DNA from: a virus
Direction: 5' to 3' (one strand)
IMG/VR virus record: IMGVR_UViG_3300021226_000189
Length of the DNA: 64,000 nucleotides
The stretch's first letter is position 1. Each line of letters begins with the position of its first letter. The position numbers and the translations under genes were made by a program. Below, one piece after another: positions 1 to 56,966 of the stretch. The notes under the pieces are model-generated. The model had not been told where the DNA came from and did not search any database. It saw only the letters and a list, made by a program, of their open reading frames with translations.

Positions 1-92
1 CGACAGAAACGAGTGCATCTGCAAGGAAGAATTGGCGGGAAGTTCCACAGTGGTAGCCCGATTCAATTAAAAAACTAGACTAAACTCAGGAC

Positions 93-302
93 ATGCCGAA
101 CACAATGAAATTCCAATCGTTCCTACTCACTACTGACCATGTCAATGGCATGGTGAAAGCATTGAAGCAAGCAGGTTTGCGCGTAGAGCGTAATTCTGGA
201 ACAGTCAAAGCTTTCCACAATGACAAGAGAATCTTTGCAGCCTTGCAGAAAGGTCGCAATCAGCCTTGGATTGTTCGCCATGTCGTGGGATTGTTCAATT
301 AA
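93..302 (+). CDS. Early small hypothetical protein (69 aa)
   Basis: ATG 6 nt after TAAACT; stop is the TAA of the next repeat. Confidence 0.8.
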   Translation: MPNTMKFQSFLLTTDHVNGMVKALKQAGLRVERNSGTVKAFHNDKRIFAALQKGRNQPWIVRHVVGLFN

Positions 303-324
303 AAAACTAGACTAAACTCAGGAC

Positions 325-555
325 ATGACCTTACAAATTAAAACATCTTACGTCTCTCCCACGAATACTAAAGGCGCGAAAATCAAAGCCACATTCAATG
401 GCAAGACCGTTTCGGTTCCTTTCAATTACGCTCTGAACTCAGAAGAACGTCATGAAGAAGCAGCGATTGCTTTTGCTGACAAGCATGGATTGAGCATGAA
501 GCTTGGTGCAATCCGCTCTCATGACAAGGGTTATTTTTTCAAAATTGTTTCATGA
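325..555 (+). CDS. Early small hypothetical protein (76 aa)
   Basis: ATG 6 nt after TAAACT; PTNTKGAKIKA motif typical of small phage early proteins. Confidence 0.8.
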   Translation: MTLQIKTSYVSPTNTKGAKIKATFNGKTVSVPFNYALNSEERHEEAAIAFADKHGLSMKLGAIRSHDKGYFFKIVS

Positions 556-570
556 TGGTATGGGAAAAGT

Positions 571-600
571 CCCCTCTCCTTGGTGGTGCTTGGAGAGGGG
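571..600 (+). terminator. Stem-loop upstream of cassette promoter
   Basis: CCCCTCTCC/GGAGAGGGG 9-bp stem; no U-tract. Confidence 0.6.
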
Positions 601-634
601 CAATCCAATTAAAAAACTAGAATAAACTTAGGAC

Positions 635-793
635 ATGCAACATCTTGTATTTATTATCCATGAAAAATTCGTCGCCTATCGGATGGGCAATCAGTATGGT
701 ACGCATCCAATCGGCGATGACACGGTGCAAAGCGTCATCGACTATCTCATGAAAGTCATCAATTTCAAGACAGTAGAAATCATTCACCATTAA
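635..793 (+). CDS. Early small hypothetical protein (52 aa, MQHLVFIIHEKF...), not in ORF track
   Basis: Translated by hand; ATG 6 nt after TAAACT; ends at the TAA of the next repeat. Confidence 0.75.
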   Translation: MQHLVFIIHEKFVAYRMGNQYGTHPIGDDTVQSVIDYLMKVINFKTVEIIHH

Positions 794-815
794 AAAACTA
801 GCGTAAGATTTCAAC

Positions 816-918
816 AGAGCGTCATCTAAGTGCATAGGATTCTGGAATTGGGAGATATTCGTCTAAATTAGGATACCCGACATCAGAGAATGAGAATTTG
901 CAACTCTCCGCTCTACCA
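816..918 (+). ncRNA. tRNA-shaped RNA with extended anticodon arm and 3' ACCA
   Basis: Starts where the ATG sits in other cassettes. AGAGCG(816-821)/CGCTCT(909-914) stem plus ACCA, with D-like, anticodon-like and T-like arms in cloverleaf order. Confidence 0.6.
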
Positions 919-944
919 TTAAAAAACTAGACTAAACTTAAAAC

Positions 945-1133
945 ATGACCAGACGATACACTAACCAACTGTTGGAACTCATTGATAACGGAGTGCTAAA
1001 TGCCGATGACGTTCTTCGCTCATGCCTGAATTACATGTCAGAAGCAGAAGTTGAAGACATGGCAATCAGTGAGGAATACATTGAGGAAGAAGAAGAAGAA
1101 GAAGAGGAGGAGGAGGAAGAAGAAGAGCAATAA
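945..1133 (+). CDS. Early small acidic protein with poly-Glu tail (62 aa)
   Basis: ATG 6 nt after TAAACT; GAA/GAG run; stop in next repeat. Confidence 0.8.
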   Translation: MTRRYTNQLLELIDNGVLNADDVLRSCLNYMSEAEVEDMAISEEYIEEEEEEEEEEEEEEEQ

Positions 1134-1155
1134 AAAACTAGAACAAAATACCGAC

Positions 1156-1263
1156 ATGCTTTTGATTTGTTTATTTTTTCTCACTCTAATTGTTATGGGT
1201 ACGCGCTCCCATCTTCTCGGTGCCATCATCGTTATGGCATGGACTGCATACTTCATGTGTTAA
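1156..1263 (+). CDS. Early small hydrophobic peptide (35 aa, MLLICLFFLTLIV...)
   Basis: ATG 6 nt after CAAAAT; this is the 3' half of track ORF 1051-1263. Confidence 0.65.
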   Translation: MLLICLFFLTLIVMGTRSHLLGAIIVMAWTAYFMC

Positions 1264-1288
1264 AAAACTAGAATAAAATTGGTTCATC

Positions 1289-1474
1289 ATGAAAACGACA
1301 CTACTTATCCTTGCCGCAATCCTTGCAATCCTTGCACCTTTCGGAGCTATCTTTGCAACCTTTCTATGTGAGGGGGAAATCGATTATTTTCAATTCATCT
1401 CTGGAATTGTAGCAATCATCGGTTCTCTCTGCTCTCTGATTCTGATTGTAGAAATTCAGAAGACAGTGAAATAA
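1289..1474 (+). CDS. Early small membrane protein, two TM segments (61 aa)
   Basis: Two hydrophobic stretches; follows repeat. Confidence 0.75.
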   Translation: MKTTLLILAAILAILAPFGAIFATFLCEGEIDYFQFISGIVAIIGSLCSLILIVEIQKTVK

Positions 1475-1496
1475 AAAACTAGCCTAAGATATTGAC

Positions 1497-1742
1497 ATGA
1501 CGAAAACCAAATTTCACAATCAAGATGGTACACTCACTGGTTACTCCTTTGGATGCGGATACGTGGAGCTTTACGGCGGCAAGGGGGAAGCAAGAGCAAC
1601 TCTTTCTCGTGAGCCTAACGACTTTCATGTCAAAGGATTTGACGAAAACGGGAAACATTTTTGGGAAGTCTTTAACCTTGTCAAAGATGCTCGCAAATTT
1701 GCTCGCAAAATGGCGGGGAAACTCACCAACGGTCCCCGATAA
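1497..1742 (+). CDS. Early small hypothetical protein (81 aa)
   Basis: ATG 6 nt after TAAGAT; stop in next repeat. Confidence 0.8.
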   Translation: MTKTKFHNQDGTLTGYSFGCGYVELYGGKGEARATLSREPNDFHVKGFDENGKHFWEVFNLVKDARKFARKMAGKLTNGPR

Positions 1743-1763
1743 AAACTAGCGTAAGATTGAGCC

Positions 1764-1838
1764 ATGCCTGACATTACTACCCTATCCGATAGCGACCTGC
1801 AAGACCTGATCGACTTCATGCAAGGTGTGACAAAATGA
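1764..1838 (+). CDS. Early peptide (24 aa, MPDITTLSDSDLQDLIDFMQGVTK)
   Basis: ATG 6 nt after TAAGAT; translated by hand. Confidence 0.55.
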   Translation: MPDITTLSDSDLQDLIDFMQGVTK

Positions 1839-1882
1839 CGCACCTTGCACCATTAAAAAACTAGCCTAAGATTATTACCGCA

Positions 1883-2056
1883 ATGAAATATTCCATCAAC
1901 TCCACTGTAGTCGTCTCCCCTATAAAAGGTGACGTTTTCTCTTACGAATTTCAAGGAACTGTCATCGACTTCATCAAAGAATCGAATACTTACATCGTTC
2001 AAGATCAAGACGATGACGTTTTTGAAGTCTATGAAGATCAAATCACCGCCTTGTAA
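1883..2056 (+). CDS. Early small hypothetical protein (57 aa, MKYSINSTVVV...)
   Basis: Translated by hand; ATG 10 nt after TAAGAT; stop in next repeat. Confidence 0.7.
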   Translation: MKYSINSTVVVSPIKGDVFSYEFQGTVIDFIKESNTYIVQDQDDDVFEVYEDQITAL

Positions 2057-2077
2057 AAACTAGCCTAAGATATTGAC

Positions 2078-2233
2078 ATGCCTAGATATTCTATCGAAAT
2101 CACGTATCCCTCTGGAATGATCGCTTTCATGTCCTACAATGGGAGAACAGAATGGTGCTATTCACAAGCACGTCATCACATGAAGACATGGGTGCATATC
2201 CATGGAATCAAACCACGCCTTGTAAAAAACTAG
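2078..2233 (+). CDS. Early small hypothetical protein (51 aa, MPRYSIEITYP...)
   Basis: ATG 6 nt after TAAGAT; ends on the TAG inside the next repeat. Confidence 0.7.
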   Translation: MPRYSIEITYPSGMIAFMSYNGRTEWCYSQARHHMKTWVHIHGIKPRLVKN

Positions 2234-2263
2234 AGTAAACTGATACCGTAACCAATACACACC

Positions 2264-2506
2264 ATGTCCAACAAAACTATCATCACCAAATTCGTAAACG
2301 GCGCAACCACTGGCAAAAATTCCACTCGCTCGCTTTTCATTGAGGGGGATACGATTTACTCGTATGGGTATCACTTCCCGCTTGCTCGTCGCAATGCTGA
2401 CGGCACTTTCTGGGTAAATCCTGACAAGTACAGTGTCACCACTAGCAAGCAGCAAGGCATGGTGCGTTGCGCCATTGCTCACTCTAACGGAAAATTTTCG
2501 GCGTAG
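2264..2506 (+). CDS. Early small hypothetical protein (80 aa)
   Basis: Follows repeat with a short leader; YSYGYHFPLA and YSVTTSKQQ motifs. Confidence 0.8.
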   Translation: MSNKTIITKFVNGATTGKNSTRSLFIEGDTIYSYGYHFPLARRNADGTFWVNPDKYSVTTSKQQGMVRCAIAHSNGKFSA

Positions 2507-2517
2507 TCATGGCAAGT

Positions 2518-2547
2518 CCCCCTCTCACTGTGGTAAGTGAGAGGGGG
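2518..2547 (+). terminator. Stem-loop upstream of cassette promoter (second copy)
   Basis: CCCCCTCTCAC/GTGAGAGGGGG 11-bp stem; same AAGT and CAATCC flanks as 571-600. Confidence 0.6.
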
Positions 2548-2581
2548 CAATCCTATTAAAAAACTAGCTTAAACTTGGGAC

Positions 2582-2857
2582 ATGACCGACTTGCAACAAG
2601 CTACTTACTGGTTAAAGACTCATTACAAGTTCCGCCATGATGGTTGGACTAAAAGACAATGCGCTTTGATGATAAGCCATATGCGCCCAGGTTTTTTAGA
2701 CTTCATGATGAAGGTAAATAAGCCTGGCGACTTCGACATAAAAGACGGTTTTTTCCACTTCGGACAAATTCAAACCAGAAAAGACTTGGTGAAGTTTTGG
2801 ATTCGTCAACTAAGACAGTTGAAAAATTCACCACAAAAGACAACAAAACGGAATTAA
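2582..2857 (+). CDS. Early small hypothetical protein (91 aa)
   Basis: ATG 6 nt after TAAACT; stop in next repeat. Confidence 0.8.
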   Translation: MTDLQQATYWLKTHYKFRHDGWTKRQCALMISHMRPGFLDFMMKVNKPGDFDIKDGFFHFGQIQTRKDLVKFWIRQLRQLKNSPQKTTKRN

Positions 2858-2882
2858 AAAACTAGCTTAAACTGATTGCACC

Positions 2883-3023
2883 ATGAAGCCATACGCTAAC
2901 ATCCGACTCACTCAACGCGAGCGTCAAATTCTCGCAACTCGTATCCGCCTGAATCGTAAGCACAACAAGCAACGATTCACCCGTAAAGATGCGCACGACC
3001 TTGCTTTCATCCTTTTCGCGTAA
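2883..3023 (+). CDS. Early small basic protein (46 aa, MKPYANIRLTQRER...)
   Basis: Translated by hand; ATG 9 nt after TAAACT. Confidence 0.7.
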   Translation: MKPYANIRLTQRERQILATRIRLNRKHNKQRFTRKDAHDLAFILFA

Positions 3024-3048
3024 TTAAAAACTAGCCTAAGATACTGAC

Positions 3049-3315
3049 ATGCCTACTACACTTATCACTGGTAACACTTATCCCGTTAAAGACCAAATCA
3101 AAGCTTTGGGGGGGCGATGGAACTCAGTCCGCAAGGGTTGGGAAGTCCCCACTGCTAACGCTGAAGAAGCGCAAGCACTGGTGGAAAGCGCACCACGTTC
3201 AAGCGGTCGCAACGGTCGCGTGTCGTTTGAAGTCCGCACAAGCGGTGGCACGTTCTATCGCAACTATAACGGTCGCTGCGAAGATGCACCGTGCTGCGGA
3301 TGCTGCACGTTCTAA
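3049..3315 (+). CDS. Early protein with C-terminal GRCEDAPCCGCC Cys cluster (88 aa)
   Basis: ATG 6 nt after TAAGAT; N-terminal TYPVKDQIKALGGRW motif. Confidence 0.8.
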   Translation: MPTTLITGNTYPVKDQIKALGGRWNSVRKGWEVPTANAEEAQALVESAPRSSGRNGRVSFEVRTSGGTFYRNYNGRCEDAPCCGCCTF

Positions 3316-3337
3316 AAAACTAGCGTAAGATACTGAC

Positions 3338-3448
3338 ATGTCAATCACTGCCATGCTCAAGCAAGTCCGCGCTTCTCTGAAGCAAGTCAAGTCCGCTATC
3401 CGCAAGGAAAAGCAGATTCAAAAGAAACTCATTAAAAAACTAGCCTAA
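3338..3448 (+). CDS. Early small basic helical peptide (36 aa, MSITAMLKQVRASLK...)
   Basis: ATG 6 nt after TAAGAT; reads through next repeat and stops on the TAA of its TAAGAT. Confidence 0.65.
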   Translation: MSITAMLKQVRASLKQVKSAIRKEKQIQKKLIKKLA

Positions 3449-3460
3449 GATAGCTGCACC

Positions 3461-3661
3461 ATGAAAATCGAACTCGGTAAACGCTACGTGATGAGAAACG
3501 GAAACATCACTCCACCACTCCGTGCCACTAAGTTGAAGGGTACCTTGTACCCGTTCATCGCGGATCTCCCTGATGTCATCGGGATCAGTGAATGGAGTGT
3601 TGAAGGTTTTCGATACTCTGAAAAATATGAATCGGAATATGATCTTATCGCAGAAGCCTGA
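3461..3661 (+). CDS. Early small hypothetical protein (66 aa)
   Basis: ATG 9 nt after TAAGAT. Confidence 0.75.
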   Translation: MKIELGKRYVMRNGNITPPLRATKLKGTLYPFIADLPDVIGISEWSVEGFRYSEKYESEYDLIAEA

Positions 3662-3690
3662 TTAAAAAACTAGCCTAAGATAGCTGCACC

Positions 3691-3873
3691 ATGATTTACA
3701 AAAATCACACAATCCTGATGGCTTGGAGCCTTGACAAAGGCAACAAGGGTTACGATGTCCTCACTAAAGATGGGAGAATCTGGTTTCTCACTCTGTTAGA
3801 GGCTAAAGCTTGGATTGACTCCAAGCAACTAGCGATTGCAAACCACCATAGCCCAATGAACGGGCTATGGTAA
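3691..3873 (+). CDS. Early small hypothetical protein (60 aa)
   Basis: ATG 9 nt after TAAGAT; stop in next repeat. Confidence 0.75.
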   Translation: MIYKNHTILMAWSLDKGNKGYDVLTKDGRIWFLTLLEAKAWIDSKQLAIANHHSPMNGLW

Positions 3874-3898
3874 AAAACTAGAATAAGATAGTGTCGTC

Positions 3899-4123
3899 AT
3901 GAAAATCATTCCACTTCCCACTAAGTTCCACGCTGGCATCGACAAGGGTAAACTTGTCGCTCATGAGTTTGTCTCATTCCTTGTGAATGAGTGCGGTGCT
4001 GTCAATACTACTGGCAAGCCGCTTTACAATACAGCGGTGAAAGACTTGCTGATTGAAGGACGTGCAATCACTCGCTGCGAGATTGACACGTTCAAGTATA
4101 AAGCACACTTCACCTTGGCTTAA
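3899..4123 (+). CDS. Early small hypothetical protein (74 aa)
   Basis: ATG 9 nt after TAAGAT; stop in next repeat. Confidence 0.75.
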   Translation: MKIIPLPTKFHAGIDKGKLVAHEFVSFLVNECGAVNTTGKPLYNTAVKDLLIEGRAITRCEIDTFKYKAHFTLA

Positions 4124-4147
4124 AAACTAGCCTAAGATAACTGCACC

Positions 4148-4432
4148 ATGAATAACATGAACACCACCACCATCACTGCCGCTCACGTCGAAGCTTTCCT
4201 TGCTTTCATGTCCCCTTCAGCGGGACAAGTGATTGAACTCCCGAATGATCGGGTGCTTCTCCACTTCACTGAAGACGGAACAAACCGTGTCGCATGGATA
4301 CCGCAAGGCGCGAGCATTCACCCGATGAACGTGCAAACGATGAAGCTCACGCATTTGAGTGCTGGGGAGCTTGCGATTGTCCTTGACAAATTCAAGAACC
4401 CAAGGACTGCGAAAGTCCTCGGGCATGTCTAA
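4148..4432 (+). CDS. Early small hypothetical protein (94 aa)
   Basis: ATG 9 nt after TAAGAT. Confidence 0.75.
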   Translation: MNNMNTTTITAAHVEAFLAFMSPSAGQVIELPNDRVLLHFTEDGTNRVAWIPQGASIHPMNVQTMKLTHLSAGELAIVLDKFKNPRTAKVLGHV

Positions 4433-4505
4433 CATCTAGCATCTAACGCCCTCGTGTCCTAACGGATGTGAGGGCAATTAAAAACTAAAGTAAGATAGTC
4501 CTGTC

Positions 4506-4763
4506 ATGATTACTGTCGATCAATACAATGCCATCAAGAAGGAACGTGCGCAAGCCGTTAAACTCAATGCTTCCTATCGCATGAGCGGACAAAAGCACAT
4601 GCAAGTCCCTCTCCCTGAGCTTCCCCCTAAGCCTAAAAAATGGGTATTAGAAGATCAAGAAGGTAACTATGAAGGCACCTTCTGGGACAAAGCAGAAGCA
4701 GAAGATTGCGCTGAATATAACGGTTTCAAAATCTTTGAAATGGATTTTGACAAGTTCATCTAA
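4506..4763 (+). CDS. Early small hypothetical protein (85 aa)
   Basis: ATG 9 nt after TAAGAT; last cassette. Confidence 0.75.
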   Translation: MITVDQYNAIKKERAQAVKLNASYRMSGQKHMQVPLPELPPKPKKWVLEDQEGNYEGTFWDKAEAEDCAEYNGFKIFEMDFDKFI

Positions 4764-4784
4764 CATCTAACATCTAACATCTAA
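4757..4784 (+). repeat. (CATCTAA)x4 tandem heptamer
   Basis: Read directly; related run at 4428-4446. Confidence 0.9.
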
Positions 4785-4821
4785 CGCCCTCGTGTCCTAA
4801 CGGATGCGGGGGCGTTTTTTT
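4785..4821 (+). terminator. Intrinsic terminator closing the early array
   Basis: 13-bp stem (with G-U pairs), TAAC loop, T7 tail. Confidence 0.85.
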
Positions 4822-4832
4822 ATGTACTCGCA

Positions 4833-4905
4833 TTCTAGTTTTTAAGAGGGTGTTTTTAAAAACTAGGGGGGGTTGTTAGGATTTGCTTCTAGTTTTTAAG
4901 AGGGT
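4833..4905 (-). repeat. 19-bp direct repeat TTCTAGTTTTTAAGAGGGT x2 (array motif in reverse orientation)
   Basis: 4833-4851 and 4887-4905; forward TAAAAACTAG between them at 4857-4866. Confidence 0.9.
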
Positions 4906-4970
4906 CGGGGGACGGGGGGTTGCCATGGCAAAATAATTTTTTATATAATTCTTGGAAATTCGACTATTGA

Positions 4971-5057
4971 AAAAAATTTTTTTATTATTTTTTCGGGATT
5001 TTTTCCATATTCGCGCCCTCCTCAAAAAATTTTTTTTATTATTTTTTCGGGATTTTT
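4971..5057. repeat. ~34-bp imperfect A/T-tract direct repeat x2
   Basis: AAAAAATTTTTTT(T)ATTATTTTTTCGGGATTTTT at 4971-5004 and 5024-5057. Confidence 0.85.
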
Positions 5058-5058
5058 C

Positions 5059-5190
5059 TTATAGGAATTTCAACCACCTAATGAGTTCTGCTATTTTCAC
5101 CATGCAGTCTCCTATGAGATTCACCCATGCTACCATTGTCCCTATTATCCAGAGGAAAGCAAAAATCTCATGTTTATCGTTTCTATCCAT
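5059..5190 (-). CDS. Small hydrophobic protein (43 aa, MDRNDKHEIFAFLW...)
   Basis: Translated by hand; start overlaps the end of 5183-5461. Confidence 0.45.
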   Translation of the reverse strand: MDRNDKHEIFAFLWIIGTMVAWVNLIGDCMVKIAELIRWLKFL

Positions 5191-5461
5191 TACTCAACAA
5201 TTTTTTCAATTTCTCTTCTGCGTCTTCCAATCGGGAATGAGTCCATCCTTTGGCTCCCCATTGTTCGTTACTTGGTGCATATTCAGCCGCTGCTACTTCG
5301 TTACCCATGATAGTTCTTCCATCATGACTTTGGATTTGGATTACTTCCCAATTCTCATGTTTATTTCCTTCTTGGGTTCCTTTGAAGATTGCGAAGTCTC
5401 CCTCTCTTTTGTATTGGTAGAAAGTGTATCCGTTCTTTTTATATTCTGTCAGGATTTTCAT
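5183..5461 (-). CDS. Hypothetical protein (92 aa)
   Basis: ORF with TTGACA-N16-TAAATT-N6-ATG promoter. Confidence 0.8.
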   Translation of the reverse strand: MKILTEYKKNGYTFYQYKREGDFAIFKGTQEGNKHENWEVIQIQSHDGRTIMGNEVAAAEYAPSNEQWGAKGWTHSRLEDAEEKLKKLLSNG

Positions 5462-7493: not shown

Positions 7494-8053
7494 TACTTGA
7501 TCCAGCTTGAGTTATCTTCGCCTGTTCGGAAATTCTCTTTGGTTTCCGCACTTGTCACAATCACCACTTGAATCTCTTGTTTACCAAACATTTTAAGAAT
7601 CATTCCTGATGGGAACTGAGTGATCATATCGTCTCCTTGTCTCTTGATTTCCAAAAGACGGGTTTGAGAGAATTGCCAATCCTTTCTACCAGCGACCAGA
7701 ATGTTCTGTAGATTCGCCAAAGTCTTAACTTCGGTAATTGTCGGCACTGCTTCACGAACCATACCAACAGTCACCAATTGACCATCTCCTGCGGTGTTGC
7801 CACCTCTTGCCTGAGCATAACCCGTGATGATATTCGTCAGAGCTTCTACTTCCTTATCGGAAACCGCTGCTGCTTCTCGAATCGCTTTTCGTGTATTATC
7901 CAATACGTTTTTATTATCTTCTTGTGTAGCTTTCGCCAGATTCTCCAATTTCGTGTAGCTATTGAAGCTACCGATAGCGGAGAACAAGAAGATAAGACCA
8001 AGGAAGATAAAGCTTCCAACAACAACCAATGATGTAATTAATGTTTTATTCAT
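7493..8053 (-). CDS. LemA-like membrane-anchored protein
   Basis: N-terminal TM, FNSYTKLEN..., helical body, C-terminal FPSGMIL pattern as in LemA. Confidence 0.55.
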   Translation of the reverse strand: MNKTLITSLVVVGSFIFLGLIFLFSAIGSFNSYTKLENLAKATQEDNKNVLDNTRKAIREAAAVSDKEVEALTNIITGYAQARGGNTAGDGQLVTVGMVREAVPTITEVKTLANLQNILVAGRKDWQFSQTRLLEIKRQGDDMITQFPSGMILKMFGKQEIQVVIVTSAETKENFRTGEDNSSWIK

Positions 8054-8062
8054 TTCGCAAGT

Positions 8063-8123
8063 ATCTTACTCTATTTTTTATGGAAGTCAATAGACTTGAC
8101 AATTATAAAAACTAAGGTATATT
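8063..8123. promoter_or_regulatory. Divergent sigma70-like promoters carrying the array motif in their spacers
   Basis: Plus strand: TTGACA(8096)-N16-TATATT-N6-ATG with AAAAACTAA. Minus strand: TTGACT(8090)-N16-TAAGAT-N9-ATG with AAAAAATAG. Confidence 0.75.
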
Positions 8124-8129
8124 CCAATC

Positions 8130-8342
8130 ATGAACGCAAACGAAGACAATTATTTATTATTCATGGGAGCATTTTATTATCCACAGAGAGCATGGGATGA
8201 TTATGTAAATTCTTATCCCGATCTGGAGTCTGCACGAGAAATAGCCAAATCGAAATTAGAACCATTCGAATTTGATTGGTATCAGATCGTGGATATTCGA
8301 ACCCGATTGATTGTGGAGGAAGGACAAGTTGATAAAAACTAG
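8130..8342 (+). CDS. Hypothetical protein (70 aa)
   Basis: ORF ends on the TAG of an array-type motif. Confidence 0.75.
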   Translation: MNANEDNYLLFMGAFYYPQRAWDDYVNSYPDLESAREIAKSKLEPFEFDWYQIVDIRTRLIVEEGQVDKN

Positions 8343-8356
8343 AATATAATACTGAC

Positions 8357-8722
8357 ATGATCACGATACAAACAATTATTTCAATACTATTTTTTCATTG
8401 GTTTTTTGATTTTTTTCTTCAAACAAGAGAGATGGCAAATAATAAAAGTAAATCCAATTTTTATTTGGGGCAGCATGTGGGACTATATTCCTTCGGCTTG
8501 TTATTAGTGGCAAGCTTTATATTCCCAAATAATGTTATTGAATGTCTATGTTGGATTGGGATCAACGGTGTTGCGCATTTCCTCACAGATTATGTGACGA
8601 GTCGCGCATCATCCGCTCTCTATAAAGAAGAAAGATTTCATGAGTTCTTCTGTATAATTGGGCTTGACCAGCTTATTCACTATGTTACATTATTTGGAAC
8701 TTACGTTTGGTTGAAAAATTAA
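8357..8722 (+). CDS. DUF3307-like membrane protein
   Basis: HWFFDFFLQ, HFLTDY and GLDQLIH motifs; AAAAACTAG-AA-TATAAT-N6-ATG promoter. Confidence 0.75.
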   Translation: MITIQTIISILFFHWFFDFFLQTREMANNKSKSNFYLGQHVGLYSFGLLLVASFIFPNNVIECLCWIGINGVAHFLTDYVTSRASSALYKEERFHEFFCIIGLDQLIHYVTLFGTYVWLKN

Positions 8723-8735
8723 AAAATATGAAATT

Positions 8736-9083
8736 ATGGGAATTAAATTATTCAGTAGTGGGTCATCAACACCACAAACACCTTCTTATTCAGTGGTGAA
8801 TGTTTTTGAAAAAGAAAAATATGTCTCCCCAAATCCAAATCCTTTTAAATTCAAAGTTCTGAAAGAGGAAAGGTTAGACAGGGGGATGATTCTTTTGGTG
8901 AATTATGAAGGTTGCACAACATTCAATGGAAATAAATTACTTTTACTTCGTTGTAAAATCGACCTGAAATATTTTGGAAAACTTGATCCACATATTTTGG
9001 GGGATGATCATATCGTTTGCGCTCGTTTTGAACCTACGGAGCAAGGATGGGAAATGGCGAGAATGGCTGCGAATTGTCTTTAA
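8736..9083 (+). CDS. Hypothetical protein (115 aa)
   Basis: ORF; DPHI...ARFEPTEQGW motif. Confidence 0.75.
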   Translation: MGIKLFSSGSSTPQTPSYSVVNVFEKEKYVSPNPNPFKFKVLKEERLDRGMILLVNYEGCTTFNGNKLLLLRCKIDLKYFGKLDPHILGDDHIVCARFEPTEQGWEMARMAANCL

Positions 9084-9105
9084 AAAACTAGAATACAATA
9101 CTGAC

Positions 9106-9309
9106 ATGAAAGACAGATATACATTATATACAGAACTTAATGGAGATCAATGGATTTCCGCTCCCATGAATGGAGGAGACGTTGGTGATCTTTCTGATAT
9201 CGTGGAAGAACTTAACGCGCTTTATGATAAAAATAAAGCATATAAAAAAATAATTGAATCATATGAAAAAAGACTTGGACTTGACAAGCGGGTCGAATAC
9301 TCCCGATGA
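9106..9309 (+). CDS. Hypothetical protein (67 aa; start corrected from track 8974)
   Basis: AAAAAACTAG-AA-TACAAT-N6-ATG at 9082-9108. Confidence 0.7.
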   Translation: MKDRYTLYTELNGDQWISAPMNGGDVGDLSDIVEELNALYDKNKAYKKIIESYEKRLGLDKRVEYSR

Positions 9310-29736: not shown

Positions 29737-31218
29737 TTATAAATATGTCGAAATTGAACCAGGAGTAAACGCAGTACCAAGACCTTTGACAATGATCAGG
29801 TGATAATAAAGATTAGCACCGAAGATATTGTTTACGATACCATAACGGGTCATGAGTCCAACGCGAGGAGCGAAATCATTCGGTCCAATTGTGCGTTGCA
29901 CCATAATCGGGATGTATGGGCAGTAAATAATACCTGTGTCATAGTATTCAGAACCTTTGTAGCCCAAGAGAGCGTATTCAACACCGTTTGGATTGTTAGA
30001 AGAGTAACCTCTATTTCCATACAATGAAGAGTTCTGAACTTCAGTCCGAGTATCACGATAAACCGTCCAGCGGCTACCAACAGTACCAACTTTAGCAATA
30101 CCTACACCAGCCGTGGAAACAGTTCCATTGATTTCAAAAACTTTGAAGTCAGGAAGCATTTCAAGGATGCTGCAAACACGAGGAGTTGCGATAACAAAGT
30201 TAGCAGCACCTCTACGGTTACGAGCAGCCATACGACCACTTTCGATAAGCAAGCGTTGATAGAAGGTAATATTTCTTTCAGCAGTCCAACGACCATCCGC
30301 ACTAACAGGACTCCAGATGGAGAAACCTGCTCCAGGCCCAGCATTGAAGGCGGTTTGGATCATACGCATTACAACTTCACGGTCGATTTCAGCTTGGATC
30401 TCATACGACATAGCATTCGTAAGTTCACCATCGATATCAATACCGTTCATGTTTTTAATGTCTTGTTCCAACTCGACCGACCAACGTGTAGCCAATCTAC
30501 GTGTACCAGCTTCAACAGCGGTCTTGTCAAACTTGAGTTCGATTTGAGGGATTTTACCCGTCAACTCGTAATTATTCAAGAGTTCAGCAATACCACGGTC
30601 TTGATCTGCAAATGTCCACTCGGCATGACCAGAGAGGAAAGCAGCAGATGTGCCAGTAAAACGTGTGTCCAGAAGTTGAAAACCAAGTTCGTCGGAGTTA
30701 TCAGAGCCAATTGCTCCGAGGCCATCAGTACCAGTGTAAGCAGCTTTAAGCTGATTACCAAAGCTGGAACCTGCGCCACCGCCAGTAGGTTTACCGTCGA
30801 TACTACCATCGCTCAGAGTATCACCTTGGTAGGCATAACGAAGAGCGAAAGCAAGACCAACAGGTCCGCCCATAGGCTGAACACCAACAATTTCGTTGGA
30901 AATCAATTCAGGGAAAGTGCGTCTAATCATAGGAATAAGAATCTTTGGCAGACGTGCGTCACCGCTAGCATAGGAGTCGCTGTTAGCGATACCGTTGCCA
31001 AGGGAAGCAGCCGCGCCAAACACACCACCGCTAGATGCTGTGTTAGATTCTTGAAAGCACCACTGTTCTTGGTTCTCAAGCAACATAGCAGTCGTTTTGT
31101 AAACGTGTTCGTTCTGGATAGCAGGAATCGAGTTCGAGCTATAGTCCAGCACTTTACGCCATTTAGCAACAGCTTTTTGCATTTTTGAGCCTTGGATGTC
31201 AGTTTGTGGGATATTCAT
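29737..31218 (-). CDS. gp23: T4-like major capsid protein
   Basis: VGVQPMGGPVGLAFALR, KTAVEAGTRRLATRWSVELEQD, EIQAEIDRE, YCPYIP, PRVGLMTRYG. Confidence 0.97.
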   Translation of the reverse strand: MNIPQTDIQGSKMQKAVAKWRKVLDYSSNSIPAIQNEHVYKTTAMLLENQEQWCFQESNTASSGGVFGAAASLGNGIANSDSYASGDARLPKILIPMIRRTFPELISNEIVGVQPMGGPVGLAFALRYAYQGDTLSDGSIDGKPTGGGAGSSFGNQLKAAYTGTDGLGAIGSDNSDELGFQLLDTRFTGTSAAFLSGHAEWTFADQDRGIAELLNNYELTGKIPQIELKFDKTAVEAGTRRLATRWSVELEQDIKNMNGIDIDGELTNAMSYEIQAEIDREVVMRMIQTAFNAGPGAGFSIWSPVSADGRWTAERNITFYQRLLIESGRMAARNRRGAANFVIATPRVCSILEMLPDFKVFEINGTVSTAGVGIAKVGTVGSRWTVYRDTRTEVQNSSLYGNRGYSSNNPNGVEYALLGYKGSEYYDTGIIYCPYIPIMVQRTIGPNDFAPRVGLMTRYGIVNNIFGANLYYHLIIVKGLGTAFTPGSISTYL

Positions 31219-51982: not shown

Positions 51983-52745
51983 TATTAATATAGTGGATGT
52001 TCATATCTTCCCTGTAGATATCTTTGTAATAATTATGCGGTAGATCAGCAAACCACACGGAGGGAAAATAACATTCCTTATTCCCAATCAAAGATGCCCA
52101 CCAAGAAAAAGTGGAATTACTCCCAACGATAATATCACACTTACTCATTCTTGTCAACTCTTCAATATCTGTTTTCAATTTTATGATTTGAAAATCATAA
52201 CCATCAAATTCTTGTTGAACTTTTTGTTTACTATCGGTGAACACTTTAATATCACAACCTTTGTATTTTTCAAAAAAATATCTAAAATAATCAGTGTTGC
52301 ATACATGTAATCTTTTAGAAAAATTTAGATAGTCTCCTCTTCTTATATGTATACCAATCTCTGTGTTGCCTTCTTTCTTATCAGAAGTCTCGACTAATGG
52401 TAAATTCAAAAGTGAAATAAATTCATCTTTATCATTTTCAAAATATTTTAATGTTTGAAAATATCCATTCAGAGCAACACTTTCTTCAAAATATGGTATA
52501 GGATCATATCCAAAATTTTTCTCCGAATACATTTCTGAATTATAATCAGTGAAACCGTATTTGAAATTTTTGAATAAAGTATCCCTATAAAATAACGAAT
52601 TATTACCTTGTGTAGCGTGCCAATTTGAAGGATTTAATACTAAATCTTTATCATACTTTTTAGCATAGGAATATCCAGCAGCTACTTGAAATATCTGATT
52701 AGCAACACCACCCATTAAATCTATGTAACATTTACTCATACCCAA
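51975..52745 (-). CDS. GT11 alpha-1,2-fucosyltransferase-like
   Basis: GGVANQIFQ, GYFQ, IHIRRGDY, NSTFSWW. Confidence 0.9.
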   Translation of the reverse strand: MGMSKCYIDLMGGVANQIFQVAAGYSYAKKYDKDLVLNPSNWHATQGNNSLFYRDTLFKNFKYGFTDYNSEMYSEKNFGYDPIPYFEESVALNGYFQTLKYFENDKDEFISLLNLPLVETSDKKEGNTEIGIHIRRGDYLNFSKRLHVCNTDYFRYFFEKYKGCDIKVFTDSKQKVQQEFDGYDFQIIKLKTDIEELTRMSKCDIIVGSNSTFSWWASLIGNKECYFPSVWFADLPHNYYKDIYREDMNIHYINNV

Positions 52746-55683: not shown

Positions 55684-56966
55684 TGGAATTTTGAAATTAC
55701 GTCTTCAATATAATCAAATACTGGCTGCGTGTAATGCGGTGCAGCCCCAACAAAAAATACAGAATTCAACACTTTGTTAGCTTCGGGATATTTTTTATAG
55801 TCATCCAAGTTTTTATACCCAGGATGTAAGAGAATATTTCCAGCAAAATAATTTCTCGTTTGAATTTTATTATCTTCTAAATGCTTAACGATTCTATGCT
55901 TAACGCCAATATCTTCACAGATAAATGGTGTGCCGAACCAACAAGGATCTGCTTTTTCTAAAACTTTCGGGCTTCTAATATTAGAGATATGTTTATTGAA
56001 AATTTCTGATATTTTACGATTAGAATTTCTTCTATTGGATTCCATTTCATCCAATTTTTCAAGCTGAACCAAACCGATAGCACCTTGTAAATCTAAAGGT
56101 TTTAAATTATACCCCATTTCAGAAAAAACATATTTATGATCTATAACACCGTCAAAATTCTCCAACCAATTATCAAATCTATTACCACATGTTCCACAAG
56201 GAAGCAAATTTGCAGCCCCCACACAGTAACAATCTCTACCCCACCAACTCAAACTAACAAACAATTTTTTAAGTTCGATATCGTTTGAACATACCATACC
56301 ACCCTCTCCAGTTGAGATATGGTGAGCAGGATAAAAAGAATTAGAATACGCTACGTAGTATTCATTGAGATATTTTCCATCCCACTTACTCCCCAAACTA
56401 TCGCAATTATCACCTACCAAAAGAATTCCATGTTTTTCACTGATAGCAATCAATCTATCCATATCAGGAGGATTTCCCAATACTGGAGAGACAAAAATAG
56501 CTTTTGTTTTATTTGTTATTTTGGATTCGATTTGTTCTAAATCGAAGTTTAAAGTATCCCATTCAATATCAACAAATACAGGAGTTAATTTATTTTGATA
56601 GATAACAGAAACGGTAGTAGCGAACCCAACAGGAGATACAATCACTTCATCTCCGTCTTGCCAATTAAATCTTCGTTTTAATGCTGAAATTAAAACAAGA
56701 TTCGCGGAACTTCCAGAGTTCACCATATGTCCATATTTGGTATTAAACCTTTTAGAAAATTGACTTTCAAATTTATGAACCTTTTCTCCAGCAGTGATCC
56801 ACTTACCATTTAAAAATGAATCTAATGCTGCTTCAGTCTCTCGATTATCCCAGTATGGACCAGAATAATAAATCGGTGTTTTACCAGCTTTAAATTCTTT
56901 AGCATTGTAGATATAAGGCGATACATGATTGCCTACCAGTGTTTTGATATCTTCTTTTAAGATCAT
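55680..56966 (-). CDS. rfbH: RfbH-like PLP/PMP-dependent sugar 3-dehydratase (DegT family)
   Basis: NSGSSANL, DNCDSLG, SFYPAHHISTGEGG (His in place of Lys), WGRDCYC, YDHKY-like IDHKY. Confidence 0.9.
   Translation of the reverse strand: MILKEDIKTLVGNHVSPYIYNAKEFKAGKTPIYYSGPYWDNRETEAALDSFLNGKWITAGEKVHKFESQFSKRFNTKYGHMVNSGSSANLVLISALKRRFNWQDGDEVIVSPVGFATTVSVIYQNKLTPVFVDIEWDTLNFDLEQIESKITNKTKAIFVSPVLGNPPDMDRLIAISEKHGILLVGDNCDSLGSKWDGKYLNEYYVAYSNSFYPAHHISTGEGGMVCSNDIELKKLFVSLSWWGRDCYCVGAANLLPCGTCGNRFDNWLENFDGVIDHKYVFSEMGYNLKPLDLQGAIGLVQLEKLDEMESNRRNSNRKISEIFNKHISNIRSPKVLEKADPCWFGTPFICEDIGVKHRIVKHLEDNKIQTRNYFAGNILLHPGYKNLDDYKKYPEANKVLNSVFFVGAAPHYTQPVFDYIEDVISKFQ

Follow-up and report, generated by a model that had tools for sequence, protein, structure and literature searches.

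An uncultured T4-like phage carries dozens of tiny genes arranged head to tail, each behind the same predicted promoter of about 25 bp, placed so that the RNA should begin at the start codon, and related phages have gained, lost and reordered these gene-plus-promoter units at the repeats. To analyze this arrangement, the repeats, their spacing to the downstream genes and their distribution in relatives were examined starting from a 64,000-nucleotide stretch of IMG/VR record IMGVR_UViG_3300021226_000189, referred to below as the window.

An initial annotation, made from the sequence alone, had described 21 one-gene cassettes, each preceded by an A-tract/CTAG motif and a TAnnnT hexamer. This observation was confirmed exactly. 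The core AAAAACTAG occurred 20 times without mismatch, plus one AAAAACTAA, on the + strand between 70 and 4488, giving 21 units of T-A5-6-CTAG-NN-TAnnnT. The hexamer two bases downstream of the core was TAnnnT in 20 of the 21 units, and the ATG followed it by 6 nt in 11 units, 9 nt in 7, 10 and 22 nt in one each, and was absent in one. The 6th/7th base after the hexamer was pyrimidine/purine in 20 of 21 units, and no Shine-Dalgarno sequence is possible in leaders of 0-3 nt. Three further exact copies of the core lay at the boundary at 4835-4897, and only three others were found in the remaining 59 kb (8334, 9083 and 42061-). With one mismatch allowed, the window contained 58 matches against 33 +/- 5 in shuffles. 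The features are listed in the table.

Features of the early-region end and its flank in the window. Spacing is the distance in nt from hexamer to ATG; G001, G002 and G004 are relatives and X1, X2 and X4 are metagenomes.
Positions	Strand	Feature	ATG (spacing)	Product	Remarks
68..302	+	Cassette 1	93	69 aa (ORF 93-302)	A-tract/CTAG 68-78, hexamer TAAACT 81-86; predicted +1 = ATG
300..555	+	Cassette 2	325 (6)	76 aa (ORF 325-555)	Promoter 300-318; matches phrog_3199, unknown function
569..601	+	Hairpin without a T-tail			Directly upstream of promoter 3, PeSL-like stem-loop; -21.4 kcal/mol
610..793	+	Cassette 3	635 (6)	52 aa	75% identical homolog in G001
791..921	+	Cassette 4	none		Full promoter; predicted RNA 816-918, 5' AGAGCG pairs with 3' CGCTCT, followed by ACCA; fold energy no better than shuffles (z = -0.01)
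920..1133	+	Cassette 5	945	62 aa	Poly-Glu C-terminal tail; homologs in G001 and G002
1131..1263	+	Cassette 6	1156	35-aa hydrophobic peptide	Hexamer CAAAAT, the only non-TAnnnT unit
1261..1474	+	Cassette 7	1289 (9)	61-aa hydrophobic protein	Predicted 3-nt leader AUC
1472..1742	+	Cassette 8	1497 (6)	81 aa	
1739..1838	+	Cassette 9	1764	24 aa	88% identical in G001 and G002
1854..2056	+	Cassette 10	1883 (10)	57 aa	Missing precisely in a contig of X1 (joint 1855->2055, 17 shared letters)
2053..2233	+	Cassette 11	2078	51 aa	Stop codon is the TAG of the next CTAG
2223..2506	+	Cassette 12	2264 (22)	80 aa	About a 15-nt leader without Shine-Dalgarno, long leader conserved in G001 and G002; matches phrog_7247, unknown function
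2516..2548	+	Hairpin without a T-tail			Upstream of promoter 13; -26.8 kcal/mol, z = -4.3
2557..2857	+	Cassette 13	2582	91 aa	
2855..3023	+	Cassette 14	2883 (9)	46-aa basic protein	Leader ACC
3024..3315	+	Cassette 15	3049	88 aa	Cys-rich C-terminus; matches phrog_5664/2656; 86% identical in G001
3313..3448	+	Cassette 16	3338	36 aa	Stop codon is the TAA of the next hexamer; order relative to cassette 17 swapped in X2 and X4
3433..3661	+	Cassette 17	3461 (9)	66 aa	
3663..3873	+	Cassette 18	3691 (9)	60 aa	
3871..4123	+	Cassette 19	3899 (9)	74 aa	Leader GUC
4120..4432	+	Cassette 20	4148 (9)	94 aa	
4448..4475	+	Hairpin without a T-tail			Upstream of promoter 21, preceded by CATCTAA repeats; -18.7 kcal/mol, z = -4.6
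4478..4763	+	Cassette 21	4506 (9)	85 aa	Variant core AAAAACTAA
4783..4823	+	Intrinsic terminator			The only canonical one, 15-bp stem plus T7; marks the end of the early region; -27.8 kcal/mol, z = -6.8
4826..4905	.	Boundary with three core copies			4835-, 4858+ and 4889-, without -10 hexamer, arranged as inverted repeats; arrangement conserved in G001 and G004
8051..8092	-	Early-type promoter			TTGACT at a 16-nt spacer, core AAAAAATAG, hexamer TAAGAT; drives the LemA-like operon 8053->5498
8094..8132	+	Divergent early-type promoter	8130		TTGACA at a 16-nt spacer, core AAAACTAA, hexamer TATATT
8333..8359	+	Early-type promoter outside the array	8357		Hexamer TATAAT
9082..9108	+	Early-type promoter outside the array	9106		Hexamer TACAAT

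Position 1 of the window lies inside an open reading frame, indicating that the end of the window cuts the array and that the figure of 21 units is a window artefact. The motif was found 74+1, 94+1, 28+1, 73+1, 57+4, 18 and 65 times in seven IMG/VR records, against 0-2 for controls. In three of them gp23 is 91-92% identical, these relatives carrying 28-94 copies, and a complete 207-kb genome has 66 copies between 7.6 and 67 kb. The array is therefore not a 21-gene module but the GC-richer terminal sub-array of a much larger, one-directional early region with 60-95 promoters. The open reading frames behave as coding sequences, since differences between 45 ortholog pairs fell 378/253/734 by codon position. 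Of the 20 proteins, 17 matched no family and the other three matched only families of unknown function; the immediate-early timing and host-takeover role proposed in the initial annotation remain hypotheses.

The interpretation given in that annotation was partly supported. Each unit carries a promoter-like element placed so that +1 falls on or 3 nt before the ATG, and the repeats are the junctions at which cassettes differ between relatives. However, AAAAACTAG, which had been proposed to replace the -35 element, does not sit at -35 but occupies about -24 to -15, the spacer and extended -10 zone. About 9 of 193 copies also carry a real TTGACw box at exactly a 16-nt spacer upstream of the hexamer, which places the hexamer as a true -10 box, and the core stands in for a missing -35 box rather than occupying its position.

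A position matrix over 207 copies in three genomes gave T 92%, A 96%, n, A 80%, A/C 98% and T 98% in the hexamer, which varies like a sigma70 -10 box. Position 6 after the hexamer was a pyrimidine in 97% and position 7 a purine in 97%, and there was no conservation at -35. In more distant relatives the hexamer is mostly TATAAT. The ATG followed the hexamer by 6 nt in 115 of 199 units and by 9 nt in 45 of 199, and in the unit listings the 9-nt class keeps the pyrimidine-purine step at the same place. It is possible, though very unlikely, that transcription starts further upstream, TAAAAAA being a T4-late-like or other -10 element and the start lying near the TAnnnT hexamer, which would give 12-15-nt leaders without Shine-Dalgarno. 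The late element of the phage, TAAATA, is A/T-rich and superficially similar, and tRNA cassettes would tolerate a longer leader. On the other hand, this view gives no reason for the T-A-n-A-M-T pattern, for the conserved pyrimidine-purine step, for TTGACw lying 16 nt from the hexamer rather than from the A-tract, and is at odds with the consensus TATAAT in distant relatives.

The motif also precedes tRNA genes that start 0-5 nt after the predicted +1 and, in the window, the ATG-less RNA of cassette 4, whose 5' end at the predicted +1 pairs with its 3' end, indicating that it is a transcription signal and not a ribosome site. An alternative is that the array is transcribed as a few long polycistronic RNAs, in which the repeat would act as a three-frame stop plus an A-rich, unstructured restart or standby site, or as a nuclease processing site generating monocistronic mRNAs. 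In favor of this view, the repeat holds stop codons in all three frames and upstream genes end in it, there are few terminators inside the array, and the phage uses stop/start coupling elsewhere. We consider it improbable, since besides the RNA genes it is opposed by the -10-like pattern of variable and invariant positions with a pyrimidine-purine step at the canonical distance, by the TTGACw boxes, and by the stop-start distances of coupled genes elsewhere in the phage, which are -25 to +12 nt and not the roughly 25-30 nt seen here.

Leaderless translation is suggested by the rest of the genome. TAAATA-N5-ATG occurred 15 times, with a sharp peak at N5, and since T4 late promoters span -13 to -6 (PMC1524935) a second promoter class also puts +1 on the ATG. 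Only 3 of 90 crude gene calls had a Shine-Dalgarno-like 4-mer, and 32 genes without a promoter motif started within -25 to +12 nt of the upstream stop codon. A search for RNA runs found none holding the stretch; the start site rests on spacing rules taken from E. coli and T4, and efficient leaderless translation in the host is assumed.

When sites were chosen only by their downstream half, the 9-mer was exact in 93, AAAAACTAA was found in 17, and other forms were at background level. The near-invariance of A5CTAR, far tighter than that of the hexamer, is unusual for a contact made by sigma70 holoenzyme alone, and the conserved core copies without a -10 box at 4835-4897 suggest that the core has a role of its own, such as a factor site or a hairpin. 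These results leave room for a tentative alternative, less likely than the main reading, in which A5CTAR is the binding site of a phage-encoded or virion-injected activator recruiting host RNA polymerase to -35-less promoters, as MotA/AsiA do at T4 middle promoters. This alternative keeps the promoter and leaderless anatomy and changes who reads the core: the units would not be immediate-early, and only the few TTGACw-bearing copies would fire on unmodified polymerase, a minority of such copies being expected for a two-tier programme. Against it, no MotA-like domain and no candidate factor were found, although the MotA search had no positive control. The same motif serves every non-late gene seen, including the first genes of the region, so no separate promoter class is visible for making the factor unless it is injected, and the TTGACw copies also carry the core. 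No T7-type RNA polymerase (again searched without a positive control) and no full-length sigma70 were found in the relatives, only a weak gp55-like region-2 hit.

Cassette content was then compared between relatives, identical content having been named beforehand as an outcome that would refute the cassette reading; it was not observed. The window shares only 6 of 20 cassettes with G001, although the flank is 86% identical, and G001 and G002 share 44 of 74. Of 27 homology-block starts, 18 fell within -10 to +5 of a motif, against 5% at random. However, homology blocks would end at the repeats even if crossovers happened elsewhere, because the repeat is the only sequence shared by unrelated cassettes. 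Metagenome contigs delete or swap cassettes exactly at the repeats: besides the loss of cassette 10, cassettes 10-11 are deleted together, and cassettes 16 and 17 are swapped in two studies.

The closest known system is the PeSL (promoter-early stem-loop) cassette of T4-type phages (Arbiol et al. 2010, PMC2839356; Comeau et al. 2014, PMC4122927). Both are repeated early-promoter elements between small ORFs of unknown function in hyperplastic regions of T4-like myoviruses, with insertions, deletions and reorderings between close relatives lying at the elements and the promoter travelling with its gene. PeSLs consist of a stem-loop, a sigma70 -35 box, N17, a -10 box, a Shine-Dalgarno sequence and the ATG. 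Here there is no -35 box in about 95% of units and no Shine-Dalgarno sequence, the ATG lies at or 3 nt after the predicted +1, an invariant A5CTAR core is present, a strong upstream hairpin occurs in only about 10-25% of units, and the density is far higher, with one promoter per 224 bp in the window and 60-95 per genome.

The Thermus phages phiYS40 and Lalka27a (bioRxiv 10.64898/2026.04.20.719267; Sevostyanova et al. 2007) are large phages in which most transcripts reportedly begin with the A or G of the start codon, from -35-less promoters read by host polymerase. They infect Deinococcus-Thermus hosts, where leaderless expression is the norm (PMC12340547), are not T4-like, and no arrays of repeated one-gene cassettes are described for them; their transcript ends were mapped experimentally, whereas here the ends are only predicted. 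In the T4 family (Nolan et al. 2006, PMC1524935) early promoters also precede novel small ORFs and tRNA genes, the late element TAAATA matches TATAAATA at -13 to -6, and middle promoters likewise replace the -35 box with another element while keeping a sigma70 -10 box. However, T4 early promoters have a -35 box (GTTTAC) and UP-like elements, their genes have Shine-Dalgarno-led 5' UTRs, and the MotA box lies at -30, 11-13 bp from the -10 box and not 2 bp from it. Extended -10 (TGn) promoters also have an element immediately upstream of the hexamer that makes the -35 box dispensable, but the sequence here is CTAG-A-n, with G at -15 rather than T(-15)G(-14), extends into an A-tract reaching to -24, and is much more invariant than TGn. 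The SPO1 host-takeover module is likewise a cluster of small early genes with multiple strong promoters; it has about 24 genes in the terminal redundancy, with conventional -35/-10 promoters and ribosome-binding sites, and is not known to have repeat-bounded cassettes.

Taken together, the best explanation, to which we give a probability of roughly 0.72, is that window 1-4823 is the 3' end of the early region of an uncultured T4-like myovirus, in which every small gene, and a few small RNA genes, carries its own compact promoter: T-A5-6-CTAR at about -25 to -15, two bases, a sigma70-type -10 hexamer TAnAMT at -12 to -7, a 6-nt discriminator ending in a pyrimidine, and a purine at +1. In this view that purine is the A of the ATG in about 60% of units and lies 3 nt before it in about 25%, so the primary transcripts are predicted to be leaderless, or to have 3-nt leaders, and to be translated from the 5'-terminal AUG without a Shine-Dalgarno sequence. 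The anatomy, its conservation across the lineage, the coding status of the ORFs and the cassette polymorphism with junctions at the repeats come directly from the sequence comparisons, whereas the transcription start position, leaderless translation, early timing, the recombination mechanism and the roles of the proteins are inferred.

The promoter is short enough to overlap the stop codon of the preceding gene; a -35 box would fall inside the coding sequence of that gene and is dispensed with, the nearly invariant A5CTAR element, which may be contacted by the host holoenzyme or by a small phage (possibly injected) factor, taking its place. Transcripts probably read through several cassettes, stopping at occasional hairpins and at the terminator, and the protein output of a cassette should therefore depend mainly on its own promoter. 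However, with promoters 120-300 bp apart, read-through could occlude downstream promoters. Because the same roughly 20-bp sequence flanks every gene, promoter-plus-gene units would be deleted, inserted and reordered by recombination at the repeats, which in this view makes the region a fast-turnover store of small accessory genes.

The first 5400 nucleotides of the window showed a head-to-tail row of short + strand ORFs, each preceded by (T)TAAAAAACTAG, two bases and a hexamer. The core AAAAACTAG was found exactly 20 times between 70 and 4130 and once more as AAAAACTAA at 4480. Three further exact copies lie at 4835-4897, whereas only three exact copies occur in the other 59 kb. The hexamer is TAnnnT in 20 of 21 units and is separated from the ATG by 6 nt in 11 units, 9 nt in 7, 10 nt in 1 and 22 nt in 1, and one unit has no ATG. 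These distances are exactly those given in the initial annotation, and its observation is confirmed. The base before the predicted start is a pyrimidine and the start base a purine in 20 of 21 units. Position 1 of the window lies inside an ORF, so the array is cut by the window edge.

The rest of the window encodes a T4-type major capsid protein (gp23), a portal protein (gp20), a gp15-like protein, a baseplate-hub OB domain, the large subunit of ribonucleotide reductase, a CCA-adding enzyme and nine tRNAs, indicating a T4-like myovirus. The capsid protein is only about 32% identical to its best matches among cultured phages, which are cyanomyoviruses. A blastn search of 50,697 phage records found no relative, only a 43-bp chance hit in mycobacteriophages, and no cultured phage shares the array DNA. 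The array is 42-45% G+C, against 30-38% for the rest of the window. As an attempt at host inference, the DegT-like gene was compared with databases, but its best hits (59-64% identity) are spread over filamentous cyanobacteria, Bacteroidia, Fibrobacteria and a Methanobacterium MAG and are uninformative. A Bacteroidetes host seems unlikely, because the TTGACw/TAnnnT boxes are not the -33/-7 motifs of that phylum.

Features of the window and of related IMG/VR records (G001, G002 and G004) discussed in the text
Record	Position	Strand	Feature
Window	569-601		Strong hairpin directly upstream of a unit
Window	816-918		ATG-less cassette RNA, from the predicted +1
Window	945-1133, 1156-1263, 1289-1474		62-aa protein ending in about 19 consecutive Glu residues, conserved in G001 and G002, followed by two small, very hydrophobic peptides
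Window	2516-2548		Strong hairpin directly upstream of a unit
Window	4430-4446 and 4761-4785		Runs of the heptamer CATCTAA, placing stop codons in all three frames, before two copies of the same hairpin, of which only the second has a T-tail
Window	4448-4475		Strong hairpin directly upstream of a unit
Window	4783-4823		Canonical terminator closing the array
Window and locus L029	4826-4905 (window), about 1729-1790 (L029)		Three core copies without a -10 box, in inverted arrangement and followed by G-runs
Window	4930-5060		Two A/T-tract repeats of about 34 bp between the array boundary and the first minus-strand gene
Window	8051-8132	both	Divergent pair of early-type promoters, 8078(-)/8108(+), both with TTGACw at a 16-nt spacer in addition to the core; the minus-strand promoter is predicted to drive a LemA-like three-gene operon
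Window	6366-50953	both	15 sites with TAAATA exactly 5 nt before the ATG
Window	29737-31218	-	T4-type major capsid protein (gp23)
Window	1-4800		Terminal sub-array
G001	18-25 kb		Terminal sub-array
G002	51-57 kb		Terminal sub-array
G004	57-67 kb		Terminal sub-array
G001	7521-16064		Members of a 12-member paralog family of cassette proteins
G002	29559-47185		Members of the same paralog family
G002	52067-52142 (1381-1456 of locus L045)		tRNA with an abnormal anticodon loop ('tt')
G002	near 56900		Run similar to the CATCTAA runs
G004	7.6-67.1 kb	one strand	Extent of the motif
G004	67.6 kb		Homolog of the window's boundary region

To determine the real size of the feature, a pattern scan of IMG/VR was carried out and found two records with many copies of the motif. 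Whole-record searches with AAAACTAR-NN-TAnnnT then gave the counts listed below, with 0-2 hits for reversed-pattern controls. A stricter pattern that includes CATG hit more than 25 IMG/VR records.

Copies of AAAACTAR-NN-TAnnnT in related IMG/VR records
Record	Size	Forward	Reverse
G001 (fragment)	59 kb	74	1
G002 (89% complete)	184 kb	94	1
G003	177 kb	28	1
G004 (complete)	207 kb	73	1
G005	72 kb	57	4
G006	37 kb	18	0
G007	116 kb	65	0

The gp23 proteins of G002-G004 share 91-92% identity with that of the window. In G004 the motif runs on one strand and is followed by the homolog of the window's boundary region. The 21 units of the window are therefore the right-hand end of a predicted early region that takes up roughly a quarter of the genome, which corrects the array size of 21 cassettes in the initial annotation. 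We considered the possibility that the boundary at 4826-5060 is a physical genome end, but this was rejected since its homolog is internal in the complete G004 record, although the terminal repeat of that record may only reflect circular assembly. In G002 the same motif heads larger non-structural genes encoding a denV-like glycosylase, a KaiC/DnaB-type ATPase and a histidine phosphatase, which fits an early class of genes.

A position matrix was built from 207 copies of the motif. The hexamer reads T 92%, A 96%, n, A 80%, A/C 98%, T 98%, which is the degeneracy pattern of a sigma70 -10 box. Five variable bases follow, then a pyrimidine in 97% of copies and a purine in 97% (A in 86%), and nothing is conserved at the -35 position. 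On the other hand, about 9 of 193 copies carry TTGACw exactly 16 nt upstream of the hexamer, including the divergent pair in the window and the tRNA-Met cassettes, and this fixes the hexamer as a -10 box in a sigma70 frame. In agreement with this, the hexamer of the more distant relatives is mostly the consensus TATAAT. The -10-like degeneracy also argues against promoters of a phage-encoded T7-type RNA polymerase; PF00940 was not found in G002-G004, in a search without a positive control.

The motif also precedes tRNA genes, before which a ribosome-binding or restart signal would not be expected. In G001 and G002 a tRNA-Met starts 4-5 nt after the predicted +1, and in G002 the tRNA with an abnormal anticodon loop called by ARAGORN starts exactly at the predicted +1 of an early cassette promoter. 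In the window, the predicted RNA of the ATG-less unit begins at the predicted +1 with AGAGCG, which pairs with CGCUCU at its 3' end, followed by ACCA. However, this RNA does not fold better than shuffled sequences (z = -0.01) and is not called by ARAGORN or Rfam, and a tRNA-like identity is not established. An Rfam search of 1-5200 returned only two sub-threshold hits (L17DE and NsiR1; E = 0.3-0.4), which were treated as chance.

With the hexamer at -12 to -7, the purine 7 nt downstream is the canonical +1. This purine is the A of the ATG in 115 of 199 units and lies 3 nt before the ATG in 45 of 199. A -10 box (TANNNT) 6-7 nt upstream of the start codon without a Shine-Dalgarno sequence is the pattern of leaderless genes described for Deinococcus-Thermus (PMC12340547). 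The late genes of the same phage give independent support, since TAAATA was found exactly 5 nt before the ATG 15 times, with a sharp peak at that spacing. The T4 late promoter TATAAATA spans -13 to -6 (PMC1524935), and a second, unrelated promoter class therefore also places the predicted +1 on the ATG, so that late mRNAs are predicted to be leaderless too. In a crude gene call of the whole window, only 3 of 90 starts have a Shine-Dalgarno-like 4-mer at -16 to -5, 19 have the early motif and 21 the late motif. A further 32 genes, without a promoter motif, start within -25 to +12 nt of the upstream stop codon (TAATATG, TAAATG, ATGA overlaps), which indicates coupling. The phage therefore seems to use only two start contexts, a 5'-terminal AUG and stop/start re-initiation, but no RNA data set was found to contain the sequence and this is prediction only.

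To analyze the core independently, sites were chosen only by their downstream half (TAnnnT-N5-YRTG). On that basis the upstream 9-mer is AAAAACTAG in 93 sites, AAAAACTAA in 17 and otherwise no better than the opposite-strand control, which is much tighter than the -10 box itself. The core lies at about -24 to -15, and not at the position of the -35 element, which the initial annotation had it replace. The three core copies without a hexamer lie just after the terminator in an arrangement conserved in G001 and G004, and could be a factor-binding site, a bidirectional hairpin or a relic of recombination. In the relatives, no full sigma70 and no T7-type polymerase were found, only a weak gp55-like region-2 match. 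T4 middle promoters carry a MotA box (TGCTT) about 12 bp upstream of the -10 box and go with motA and asiA genes in the phage; here there is no TGCTT-type box, the core is 2 bp from the hexamer, and the MotA_activ domain was not found in three relatives, in a search in which the control genomes gave no hits either. Our reading is that host holoenzyme reads the hexamer, whereas the core may be read by the polymerase itself, in the manner of an extended -10 element, or by a small phage factor.

In more than half of the units the upstream gene ends inside the repeat, using the TAA in front of the A-tract, the TAG of CTAG or the TAA of the hexamer as stop codon. A conventional -35 box would lie in the coding sequence of the upstream gene, which may explain why a compact element close to the -10 box is used instead. 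Hairpins with dG <= -15 kcal/mol were found upstream of 5 of 21 units in the window, 9 of 77 in G001 and 9 of 96 in G002 (9-24% of units), against a background of 3.7%, indicating that the feature is enriched but present only in a minority. Since the only canonical terminator is the one that closes the array, nested read-through transcripts are likely.

Differences between 45 ortholog pairs fall 378/253/734 by codon position, indicating purifying selection on the cassette proteins; this and the scarcity of Shine-Dalgarno sequences across the phage give only indirect support to translation from the predicted 5'-terminal AUG. The 183 cassette proteins from the three genomes form 127 families, of which 85 are singletons. 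The window shares 6 of 20 cassettes with G001 and 4 of 20 with G002, yet the DNA just downstream of the array is 86% identical to G001. G001 and G002 share 44 of 74 cassettes in largely the same order, with unique cassettes interspersed. The paralog family of 105-147-aa proteins (N-terminus MTIAQQL...), for which alignment offsets suggest internal repeats of about 63 nt, is scattered through the AT-rich part of the arrays and is absent from the window.

For homology blocks of at least 85% identity, 18 of 27 starts lie within -10 to +5 of a motif (random expectation 5%) and 15 of 27 ends lie at +5 to +35 (random 10%). Logan contigs from four metagenomes (X1-X4) were also aligned to the window. 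Cassette 10 is deleted in X1 with a joint 1855->2055 and 17 shared letters (the promoter), cassettes 10-11 are deleted in X2 and X4 with a joint 1853->2223 and 11 shared letters, and cassettes 16 and 17 are in reversed order in X2 and X4, which come from different studies, with joints at the repeats. The shared repeat is shorter than the assembler's word length of 31 letters, so these joints should be spanned by reads rather than created by repeat collapse. Cassette-level polymorphism with junctions at the repeats is therefore shown, and that the crossovers occur within the repeats is the natural inference.

The last 6-10 kb of the array, the part held by the window, differs from the rest in G001, G002 and G004. 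In this terminal sub-array the G+C content is 44-50%, against about 37%, the hexamer is TAA(A/G)(A/C)T (TAAGAT/TAAACT), against TA(C/T)A(A/C)T, and the 9-nt spacing, which gives a predicted 3-nt leader ACC or GUC, predominates. Promoter subtype and gene composition vary together, suggesting either a separate exchange pool or a separate strength or timing class.

Of the 20 proteins in the window (24-94 aa), one has a weak match to Pfam DUF5710 and three match PHROGs of unknown function, and 17 are without any family. Among them are two hydrophobic peptides, the protein with a poly-Glu tail and several basic peptides. Roles in host takeover or anti-defence are plausible only by analogy with T4 early ORFs; no function could be assigned, so the host takeover proposed in the initial annotation remains a label. 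Its interpretation is partly supported: the anatomy and the cassette polymorphism with junctions at the repeats rest on the sequences, whereas the start sites, leaderless translation, the timing of expression, the recombination mechanism and the functions of the proteins are inferred.

The nearest described system is the PeSL cassette of T4-type phages (PMC2839356, PMC4122927). Like PeSLs, the elements lie between small ORFs of unknown function in a variable region of a T4-like myovirus, and insertions, deletions, replacements and reorderings between close relatives coincide with them. On the other hand, PeSLs have a sigma70-type early promoter with both -35 and -10 boxes at N17, a stem-loop immediately upstream, and a Shine-Dalgarno sequence and start codon at the 3' end. 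Here the -10 box and the start codon are present, but the -35 box is restricted to the few TTGACw copies, the predicted leader of 0-3 nt leaves no room for a Shine-Dalgarno sequence, and a stem-loop occurs only in a minority of units. For these reasons we regard the elements as related to PeSLs but distinct from them. Nor do they correspond to integron gene cassettes, which have an imperfect inverted-repeat attC site at the 3' end of each cassette and one shared promoter at the array head, since here the repeat is a short direct repeat that is itself a predicted promoter and every cassette has its own copy. Mostly leaderless programmes are documented for Thermus phages phiYS40 (the subject of PMC1885378) and Lalka27a, which are not T4-like and for which no such arrays are described. 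In the literature searched, no paper describes AAAACTAG promoters or leaderless T4-like phages.

A more far-reaching possibility, which we consider unlikely although it is not excluded, is that this lineage has put its whole proteome outside canonical initiation. Every promoter-proximal gene, early and late, would be leaderless and every other gene stop/start coupled. Since both routes use 70S ribosomes, the phage could then shut down 30S/IF3-type initiation on host mRNAs and still translate its own. In this view the invariant A5CTAR core would be read by a dedicated, possibly virion-injected, factor, defining a previously undescribed class of -35-independent promoter in T4-like phages.

The element of roughly 25 bp, predicted to need no -35 box, no 5' UTR and no ribosome-binding site, is a natural design for the smallest portable expression unit, with a nearly invariant core that is unexplained. 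The arrays hold 60-95 units, about a quarter of the genome, and differ between close relatives at the repeats; they offer a denser and cleaner case of modular gene shuffling than the PeSL systems and a large pool of small, predicted early proteins among which host-takeover or anti-defence activities could be sought. If the start sites are as predicted, this is a T4-like lineage that expresses both early and late genes as leaderless mRNAs, a programme documented in the literature searched only for Thermus phages, and it would imply either a host with efficient leaderless translation or translational takeover by the phage.
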